A DNA stretch of 852 nt from Escherichia coli (GTDB lineage: Bacteria; Pseudomonadota; Gammaproteobacteria; Enterobacterales; Enterobacteriaceae), in assembly GCF_003334335.1 (NCBI RefSeq), contig NZ_QOWQ01000144.1; one strand, 5' to 3'. Positions 1-852 of this stretch are shown one piece after another. Numbering within the stretch: position 1 is the first letter of the stretch; every line of letters starts with the position of its first letter. A model generated the notes under the pieces. It saw only the letters and a list, made by a program, of their open reading frames with translations, did no database searches and was not told the DNA's origin. The position numbers were made by a program, and so were the translations under genes.

Positions 1-64
1 GCGTCACGAAATGTCACGACATGTCACGGCGTGTCACTACGTGGTCACATTGATGTCACGACGG
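1..64 (+). repeat. Iteron array A: 6 direct copies of core GTCAC(GAC) at 10-11 bp spacing; may continue upstream of the window
   Basis: GTCAC occurs at 3-7, 13-17, 23-27, 33-37, 44-48 and 55-59, with spacings 10, 10, 10, 11, 11. Extended copies are gtcacgaa, gtcacgac, gtcacggc, gtcactac, gtcacatt, gtcacgac, all in the same orientation. Confidence 0.75.
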
Positions 65-852
65 AAGATTTAGCAAGTGCGCTTGATGTGACGGAAGACG
101 TAATTGATTCAATTTTGCATGCAATGCAGGGGCGGGTTCTGGATGGTGACCTTATTTCCGGATGGGAAAAACGTCAGGTGCTGAAAGAGGACAATGGTAA
201 CGTTTCGCAAACGGCAAAATCCCCGGCAGAGCGCAAGAGAGCGCAGCGGGAGCGCGAAAAGCTGCGGAAATATGATGCTGATTGTCACGATGAGTCACGA
301 CGTGTCACGCATCTGTCACGACAAGTCACGACAGATAAAGATACAGATACAGAATTAAACCCCACACATAACGCGCGCATGCGCGAGAGTGCTCCAACCG
401 GTGAGTCGCATGGTGCGCCGTTGCAGACAGCCGAACCTGAATACCTGGACGGCCTGAGCGAACCGATCGGGAAATTTTCGATGACTACTGTCTGGCAGCC
501 GTCGTCGGATTTTCGACAACGGGCAGCAGTGTGGGGTATGGCTCTGCCTGAGCCGGAATTTACACCTGCTGAGCTTGCCGCATTCCGGGATTACTGGATG
601 GCGGAGGGGAAGGTTTTCACACAGGTTCAGTGGGAGCAGAAATTTGCCCGCCACGTGCAGCACGTCAGGACACAGGTAAAACCAGTCAGCAAGGGGGTAA
701 GCCATGCAGCATCAGGTGGCACGGCATCACGGGCAGTTCAGGAAATCCGGGCAGCACGCGAACAGTGGGAACGAGACAACGGATTTATCAGCAACGGAAA
801 TGGCCTGGAAGCTGTGGGAGCTTATGGGGGAGGTGTATTCGAACCGCTGGAC
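1..852 (+). CDS. Replication initiator / replisome-organizer protein with DnaT-like C-terminal domain; internal fragment, 5' and 3' ends both outside the window
   Basis: Frame 1 (codons at 1, 4, 7...) has no stop across all 852 nt, while frames 2 and 3 carry stops in the first 110 nt (e.g. TGA 51-53, TAG 71-73, TGA 84-86, TAA 101-103). Residues encoded by about nt 466-672 (GKFSMTTVWQPSSDFRQRAAVWGMALPEPEFTPAELAAFRDYWMAEGKVFTQVQWEQKFARHVQHVR) share the motif string W-Q-P-x-x-D-F ... A-x-W-G-x-A-L ... E-L-A-x-F-x-x-Y-W-x-A-E-G-K-V-F-x-x-V-Q-W-x-Q-K-x-A-R that I recall from the C-terminal domain of E. coli DnaT. The N-terminal two-thirds does not resemble chromosomal DnaT and contains the iteron arrays, as expected for an initiator whose origin lies inside its own gene. 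Homology is from memory, not a search. Confidence 0.8.
281..333 (+). repeat. Iteron array B: 5 direct copies of core GTCACGAC at 10-11 bp spacing
   Basis: GTCAC occurs at 284-288, 294-298, 304-308, 315-319 and 325-329, with spacings 10, 10, 11, 10. Extended copies are gtcacgat, gtcacgac, gtcacgca, gtcacgac, gtcacgac, in the same orientation as array A. Confidence 0.75.
333..360. other. AT-rich tract with AGATA(C/A) x3 tandem; candidate DNA-unwinding element
   Basis: agataaagatacagatacagaattaaac has 21 of 28 A/T, in a window that is otherwise GC-balanced. AGATA starts at 333, 339 and 345. It lies immediately 3' of iteron array B. Confidence 0.4.
374..385. repeat. Perfect 12-bp palindrome CGCGCATGCGCG
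   Basis: cgcgca|tgcgcg is its own reverse complement. It is an alternating GC-rich run about 14 bp downstream of the AT-rich tract. The function is unknown; it also encodes part of the linker (A-R-M-R-E). Confidence 0.6.

Follow-up and report, generated by a model that had tools for sequence, protein, structure and literature searches.

Where would the strands of this stretch of Escherichia coli DNA (852 nt in all, called the window here) first come apart, if the lambdoid prophage to which it belongs were to replicate from an origin of its own? A first-pass annotation placed the initial melting at about 333–360, in an AT-rich tract lying between an array of iterons and a GC palindrome, and likened this order to that of the phage lambda origin (ori-lambda). 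The window is coding, as frame 1 is open across all 852 nt, a fact which that annotation did not mention; it is an internal part of a replication-initiator gene. Our analysis supports the proposed site. With a probability of roughly 0.65, the prophage has a lambda-style origin within its initiator gene whose DNA-unwinding element is positions 333–360, a stretch that is at the same time a joint at which gene modules are exchanged. Three comparative observations favour the tract as a candidate unwinding element: nowhere in the gene is the duplex less stable, the tract directly succeeds the final repeat across many unrelated families of iterons, and A and T are preferred at its synonymous sites.

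We infer a course of events in which the N-terminal domain of the initiator would bind the GTCACG iterons of two arrays, and the resulting nucleoprotein complex, aided by negative supercoiling, would melt the adjoining A-rich tract. The DnaT-like C-terminal domain of the initiator would then engage the exposed single strand, and the initiator, together with a P-like loader encoded just downstream, would recruit host DnaB and allow its loading. The elements concerned are as follows, in window coordinates.

1–852, plus strand: internal part (codons 43–326 of 345) of the replication-initiator gene of a lambdoid E. coli prophage, open in frame 1 and with a PHROG match
3–62, plus strand: iteron array A, six GTCAC(G) copies at 10–11 bp spacing by repeat counts, encoding a low-confidence loop (aa 47–59)
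284–332, plus strand: iteron array B, five GTCACG(AC) copies at 10–11 bp spacing by repeat counts, abutting the A-rich tract
333–360, plus strand: low-stability A-rich tract (top strand purine-rich) of in-frame GATAMA hexamers, encoding DKDTDTELN; candidate DNA-unwinding element and mosaic joint
355–372, plus strand: conserved 18-mer TTAAACCCCACACATAAC with the core AACCCCACACATA at 358–370, at the start of the DnaT-like C-terminal module; its exact sequence follows unrelated iterons in more than 120 viral contigs
371–385, no strand assigned: alternating purine-pyrimidine CG run of 15 nt, encoding ARMR, hypervariable among the 59 variants compared, and holding the palindrome CGCGCATGCGCG (374–385)
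475–672, plus strand: coding region of a DnaT-like single-stranded DNA (ssDNA)-binding domain (aa 201–266), from Pfam PF17948 (E = 1.7e-16), Foldseek and AlphaFold2 (predicted local distance difference test, pLDDT, 84–90)

The A-rich tract beside the last iteron

The window contains nine copies of GTCACG where 0.72 would be expected, and none of 200 shuffles had as many. The GTCAC copies are spread over all three reading frames and are therefore DNA repeats, not a peptide repeat; a peptide-repeat origin of the iterons was ruled out on this ground. Array B holds from one to nine copies among relatives (34 unique sequences, L009–L209), and the repeat type changes along with the N-terminal module. 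In the E. coli, Aeromonas and Pseudomonas phage homologs, the two arrays stand ~270 bp apart at identical codon positions; in sequence coordinates they lie at 129–165 and 389–416 of L262 and at 129–165 and 388–425 of L263. Two copies (L121, minus strand, ~4861; L135:1380) show a deletion that fuses array A to array B with the loss of ~271 nt. The deletion looks like recombination between iterons, and because such a loss should break the reading frame, these copies are probably defective prophages.

The last iteron of array B, GTCACGAC, occupies 325–332, and the tract, AGATAAAGATACAGATACAGAATTAAAC (333–360), begins right after it, as had been noted. Its composition of 75% AT (21/28 A/T) was confirmed, as was the AGATA tandem, whose three copies start at 333, 339 and 345 (AGATAA, AGATAC and AGATAC, then a degenerate AGAATT) with a 6-base period. 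Nearest-neighbour free energies mark the same positions: no 28-mer in the 852 nt is less stable than 333–360 (dG −29.4 versus a mean of −39.8, standard deviation 3.0, z about 3.5–3.7), the eight least stable 28-mers all start at 329–336, and no other stretch of the gene comes close. Across the operon from the cro-like to the P-like gene, the tract ranks second least stable. As in lambda-type origins, the A/T-rich stability minimum of the gene adjoins the last iteron on its downstream side. Allowing one mismatch, no match to the DnaA box or the IHF consensus was found in the window, and its single GATC lies outside the tract; the tract is therefore no obvious host-factor site. A Rfam scan of the window at a permissive threshold gave no match.

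These profiles also bear on whether the strands might open first at another place in the origin, such as upstream of the two iteron arrays or between them. The wide separation of the arrays, which is unlike lambda, would suit such a site, as would the gene types of L006, L012 and L104, whose least stable stretch falls inside the repeats or 5' of them. Against it stand the clustering of the eight least stable 28-mers at the tract and the nature of the 220 bp between arrays A and B, which encode parts of the folded N-terminal domain and are not A/T-rich. Opening elsewhere thus seems very unlikely to us, and the tract remains the preferred site.

The order of iterons, AT-rich region and palindrome was correctly described as the classical one of ori-lambda. 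When checked on lambda, gene O carries four iterons, then an A-rich tract of ~43 bp (ACACAAAAGACACTATTACAAAAGAAAAAAGAAAAGATTATTCG) and then a 28-bp inverted repeat (GTCAGAGAATTC-TGGC-GAATCCTCTGAC), and experiments have established that unwinding takes place at this A-rich tract (PMC7466680). Ori-lambda has been delimited as 39034–39160 (PMC3349717); the inverted repeat, at 39162–39189, falls outside these limits. Recombination joints are also marked in the lambda record, at 39157/8 and 39165/6 (L261:558–567); they fall at the right end of the A-rich tract and parallel the mosaic joints of the present gene.

A joint shared by many gene modules

BLAST against E. coli genomes gave sharp mosaic edges at the tract: DUF1376-type genes match the window from 335 on, another type from 351, and a third set only over 32–353. 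Judged from these comparisons, the tract is a mosaic recombination joint, which the first-pass annotation had not mentioned. This tract, or one equivalent to it, comes after the final repeat in genes with no fewer than five unrelated kinds of iteron and no fewer than three unrelated kinds of C-terminal module; its carriers include Rac ydaU as well as Aeromonas, Pseudomonas and environmental phages. The repeats TGTTCAAACA precede the same tract in L003 and L005 and the repeats ACACCCAAAAACGG do so in L006; in L008 the same tract is joined to another C-terminal half. A scan of viral contigs with the 18-mer of 355–372 returned more than 120 loci, where at least seven unrelated repeat families terminate exactly at the joint. 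Since the tract is common to many module types, it would also be the crossover point for exchange of N- and C-terminal modules, and a shared joint explains how initiator specificity is swapped while the loader-interacting half stays. Among ten representative genes, the tract is the least stable 28-mer in six.

More distant homologs of the N-terminal module, from Aeromonas phage pAEv1818, Pseudomonas phage 5399 and an environmental phage from Manatee Spring (the Manatee Spring phage), carry two arrays followed by a (C)TAGATAAAGA... tract, which is the stability minimum in all three and retains a DK(D/E)-rich peptide. The Manatee Spring phage keeps this layout with a different repeat, ACGAACGCAA, and repeat and N-terminal domain therefore co-vary. 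The region of this phage (MW202785; L265:727–1728) reads array, array, A-rich tract and strong GC-rich inverted repeat.

The main rival explanation takes the tract for a by-product: a low-complexity acidic/basic linker, A/T-rich through its codons and expanded by hexamer slippage, which is kept as a homology patch for module recombination (a linker of the Susskind-Botstein type) and has no role in strand opening. It would account for the predicted disorder of the encoded linker, for a GATAMA hexamer number that ranges from two to five among relatives (34 unique sequences), as slippage would give, for BLAST joints (335, 351 and 353) that place recombination exactly at the tract, and for the DK(D/E)-rich peptide retained in distant homologs. 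Several observations of this kind weigh against the tract as an unwinding element. The A/T richness is not significant within the window alone, as 28-nt windows with at least 21 A/T arose in 16% of 3000 first-order Markov simulations of the window (P = 0.16); a 5-mer repeated three times at period 6 arose in 0.1% (P = 0.001), and the tandem repeat alone is therefore unusual. In the L006, L012 and L104 iteron types, which have the same C-terminal module, the tract has shrunk to ~10–12 nt and the stability minimum has its place inside or upstream of the repeats, so that a 28-bp tract is not obligatory. Conservation of the joint could stem from repeated recombination rather than from selection for unwinding, and the Asp, Lys, Thr and Glu codons of the linker are inherently A/T-rich, by which protein and DNA explanations are partly confounded. 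The tract limits for the codon tests given below were set by eye, which somewhat inflates their p-values. The literature searched holds no paper on the GTCACG iterons, the tract, the motif or this origin, and a paper on the Stx-phage replication region (PMC8044961) mentions neither iterons nor an origin.

The synonymous sites argue for the opposite view. With the limits so drawn, third codon positions in the tract are A/T in 9 of 10 codons compared with 47% over the remainder of the gene (p = 0.0075). The corresponding values are 18/18 versus 34% (p = 1e-8) in the Manatee Spring phage gene, which has 58% GC, 9/12 versus 32% in Pseudomonas phage 5399, and 12/15 versus 46% in lambda O; seven genes in all, lambda O included, show the bias. 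It exceeds what amino-acid composition gives, also in the GC-rich Pseudomonas and environmental phage genes. Natural variants of the tract are non-synonymous (K/T/I, D/N) and differ in hexamer number, yet the A/T content is retained throughout. The tract always comes right after the last iteron, whatever the repeat family, and the layout is identical to that of lambda, whose tract is the proven unwinding site. Third-position diversity dips across array B and amounts to 0.03–0.10 over window 295–384 versus a gene mean of 0.18 (54 unique genes), the 18-mer portion of this dip being biased by how the loci were found. On this evidence a mere by-product is unlikely, and we retain the tract as the candidate unwinding element.

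The best-conserved DNA element is the core motif AACCCCACACATA (358–370), which lies between tract and palindrome and was not listed in the first-pass annotation. An alignment-based locus search gave only close relatives and was repeated with a divergent C-terminal module; the core persists in C-terminal modules with only 33–41% identity, which had been identified purely from their protein similarity. When the codons of 15 divergent lineages are aligned, the Asn, Pro and His of the motif use one codon each (AAC 13/13, CCC 15/15 and CAT 13/13), while all other conserved residues use two to five, and L213 and L216 read the motif DNA in another frame. From these patterns, the motif appears to be conserved at the DNA level; it matches neither the DnaA nor the IHF consensus. 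We would assign it to the C-terminal module. Among the divergent loci examined, most have a P-like loader gene after the DnaT-like module; L215 is an exception, with a larger open reading frame bearing a Walker-A-type motif (GCGTGKN) in that position.

A bolder proposal, tentative and in our view somewhat unlikely, is that tract and motif together constitute an "origin core" which, preserved as DNA, would be portable and plug into at least seven or eight iteron/N-terminal-domain specificities. In this scheme the DnaT-like domain and the P-like loader would read the motif as a specific site in the single strand or for loader entry, and the whole would be a phage analogue of the DnaA-box/DnaA-trio system. 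If true, it would show the old "conserved linker" model of lambdoid mosaicism at work. With zero synonymous variation, the motif is a clean, if small, candidate for a new cis element.

The CG run and its palindrome

The GC palindrome is perfect, as described (CGCGCATGCGCG, 12 bp at 374–385). Its inclusion in the design of the origin was not borne out: a perfect palindrome of at least 12 bp occurs in only 8 of 59 distinct variants of the post-motif segment (at least 8 bp in 26 of the 59), and many relatives are without a notable inverted repeat. Alleles of the CG segment include CGCGCACGTGCGCG (14-bp palindrome), CGCGCGTGCGCG, CGCGTGCGCGCGCGCG, CGCGCGCG, CGTGCGTGAACGCG and CGCACGCG; their lengths differ by multiples of three and the encoded residues are altered. 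The natural short allele of 371–385 is ACGCGCGCG, and the alternating run, which supplies the sequence prerequisite for a non-B form, is down to 9 nt or less in many relatives. Perfect palindromes of at least 12 bp arose by chance in 18% of the 3000 Markov simulations (P = 0.18). Folded as single-stranded DNA, the local 27-mer gives a hairpin of dG −7.4 kcal/mol (z −1.2 versus shuffles), and 22 of 200 dinucleotide shuffles of this CG-rich 27-mer fold equally well; the palindrome is therefore largely a by-product of the alternating CG run.

The palindrome or CG run might nonetheless be a functional origin element, whether by forming a cruciform, a hairpin or Z-DNA or by serving as a GC clamp that limits melting or shows where the helicase enters, like the lambda inverted repeat. 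Eight genes with unrelated post-tract sequence, among them lambda, Rac ydaU and the Pseudomonas and Manatee Spring phages, have a hairpin-prone GC-rich segment within ~30 nt of the tract end (block probabilities 0.03–0.5; Fisher combined p ~0.001, for cases picked after some had been seen), and CGCGC/GCGCG arms recur with the centres AT, GT, GG, AG, ACGT and GTGG in two reading frames. Eleven more lineages of the family, however, looked random, with block probabilities of 0.03–0.92 and nothing to be seen in several common alleles, and the common alleles CGCGCGCG-only, CGTGCGTGAACGCG and CGCACGCG have no notable inverted repeat (0.5–0.9). No notable hairpin was found after the tract in the L034, L003, L006, L012, L246 and L258 types. 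A CG run is self-complementary automatically, and the rarity of the 12-bp palindrome among variants, its frequency by chance and the folding of the shuffles all speak against a function, as does the position of the lambda inverted repeat outside ori-lambda as delimited. By rough estimate rather than computation, a stem of 4–5 bp is too short for cruciform extrusion, and Z-DNA in 12–15 bp needs nearly the full superhelical density of −0.06. We consider such a function distinctly unlikely. The palindrome is probably one variable, non-essential allele of the CG run; that inverted repeats rich in GC are loosely favoured downstream of the tract is unproven. Another perfect palindrome, the 10-bp TTGCATGCAA at 115–124, lies within the coding region of the N-terminal domain; palindromes of this size arise by chance in more than half of simulated windows.

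The GC hairpin and the T-rich run of the minus strand could also be read as the intrinsic terminator of an antisense transcript. A consensus scan returned three terminator-like matches on the minus strand at 388–360 against 0.5 expected, and a weak promoter-like site runs from 308 to 281 on that strand. The stem, however, has only 5 bp, the T-run is interrupted (TTATGTGTGG), and the hairpin is absent in many relatives and without a Rfam match. No promoter-like site is positioned to feed the terminator-like matches: the one on the minus strand lies downstream of them and therefore cannot start a transcript ended there. The antisense terminator, which depends on weak minus-strand matches and a variable CG hairpin, was rejected as the main explanation and is extremely improbable.

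The initiator, related origins and the prophage

The C-terminal domain of the initiator (aa ~200–268) superposes in Foldseek on DnaT84-153/dT10 (4OU6) and on 6AEQ with 51–58% identity and a TM value of up to 0.92. Equivalence to full-length DnaT fails (NCBIfam NF002770, 93.4 bits versus a cut-off of 201), the ssDNA-binding domain being the sole matching part. The initiator is a domain relative of DnaT and not DnaT itself, because its DnaT-like domain is fused to an iteron-associated phage N-terminal domain. The AlphaFold model, built from 32 sequences, has a mean pLDDT of only 57, and domain-level statements alone are therefore used. In this model the N-terminal domain is folded and the DnaT-like domain confident, with pLDDT below 50 at aa 47–59, encoded by array A, and at aa 137–193, encoded by array B, the A-rich tract, the motif and the CG run. 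The inter-domain linker (aa 137–193) is predicted to be disordered, which would site the tract in coding sequence where protein constraints are weak. A Foldseek search of the N-terminal domain against the PDB gave nothing significant, just weak helix-turn-helix matches at E > 5, and the DNA-binding role of this domain is therefore a presumed one.

The resemblance to ori-lambda, an origin in gene O that is grouped with those of phi80, 82, P22 and Stx phages, extends over the whole arrangement. In both, the origin or its candidate lies inside an initiator gene of the early right operon, 5' of the gene for a P-type helicase loader; initiator-specific repeats are followed downstream by a tract that is A-rich and purine-rich in the coding strand and then by a GC-richer inverted repeat; the elements fall in the segment coding for the inter-domain linker; and exchange joints are found at the A-rich tract. 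The components differ. The initiator has no sequence relationship to lambda O, as Pfam gives only DnaT PF17948 and the PHROG families are not O-like, and its C-terminal domain is a DnaT-like ssDNA binder. Its repeats are 8–10 bp long, non-palindromic and set in two arrays ~270 bp apart, whereas lambda has four dyad-symmetric iterons of 18–19 bp in one cluster. The tract consists of 28 bp of GATAMA hexamers compared with about 40–43 bp in lambda, and the inverted repeat of 12 bp is variable, compared with 28 bp in lambda. By analogy, the origin may thus be called lambda-like in its working, and not homologous.

The ydaU gene of the Rac prophage (E. coli K-12; L129:3100–3170) shows the same joint, AATAAAGATACAGATAAAGATCT, right after its own repeats TGTTCAAACA, with C-runs and a perfect GC-only palindrome CCCCCGGGGG shortly after. 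DUF1376-type N-terminal modules like that of YdaU also occur fused to the C-terminal module of the window. In contrast, the iterons, the N-terminal domain and the C-terminal module of ydaU are others, and a DnaC-like gene, ydaV, comes next instead of a P-like loader gene. According to PMC3945230, the Rac prophage possesses an origin, oriJ, that is active though repressed, and from their sequence the repeats and joint of ydaU are plausibly the position of oriJ.

In the basal unwinding system of oriC, DnaA boxes adjoin DnaA-trios and an AT-rich unwinding element. The likeness to the window is one of concept: double-strand sites are followed by a short-period repeat in the strand to be melted (GAT every 6 nt), and the same initiator contains an ssDNA-binding module. 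Unlike oriC, the window has no DnaA boxes, the repeat period is 6 and not 3, and the tract also accompanies C-terminal modules without a DnaT-like domain.

The window matches E. coli JE86-ST05 at 100%, and the annotation there gives the context. The carrier prophage is integrated beside yccA and has the gene order cro-like, cII/YdaT-like, initiator and P-like helicase loader, with the end of the initiator gene overlapping the start of the loader gene. PHROG assigns the initiator to "replication initiation protein" families and the next gene to "P-like helicase loader". At the 3' end of the initiator gene (window 790–852 and on to the gene end, L001:8790–8912), third-codon-position diversity is 0.02–0.06 versus a mean of 0.18, and this low value coincides with the approach to, and the overlap of, the loader start. 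Translational coupling, an interaction surface and recent homogenisation are possible causes.

Related sequence occurs in 867 of 5426 complete E. coli genomes, O157:H7 prophages included, with matches of 846–868 nt for the 852-nt query. This replication module is thus common in E. coli, and its origin is apparently undescribed in the literature searched. The arrangement is an ordinary one in a little-studied family, and the general picture of lambdoid replication is unchanged. For studies of how prophages are induced in pathogenic E. coli, the likely unwinding site is a defined place at which to aim ori-plasmid and footprinting experiments.

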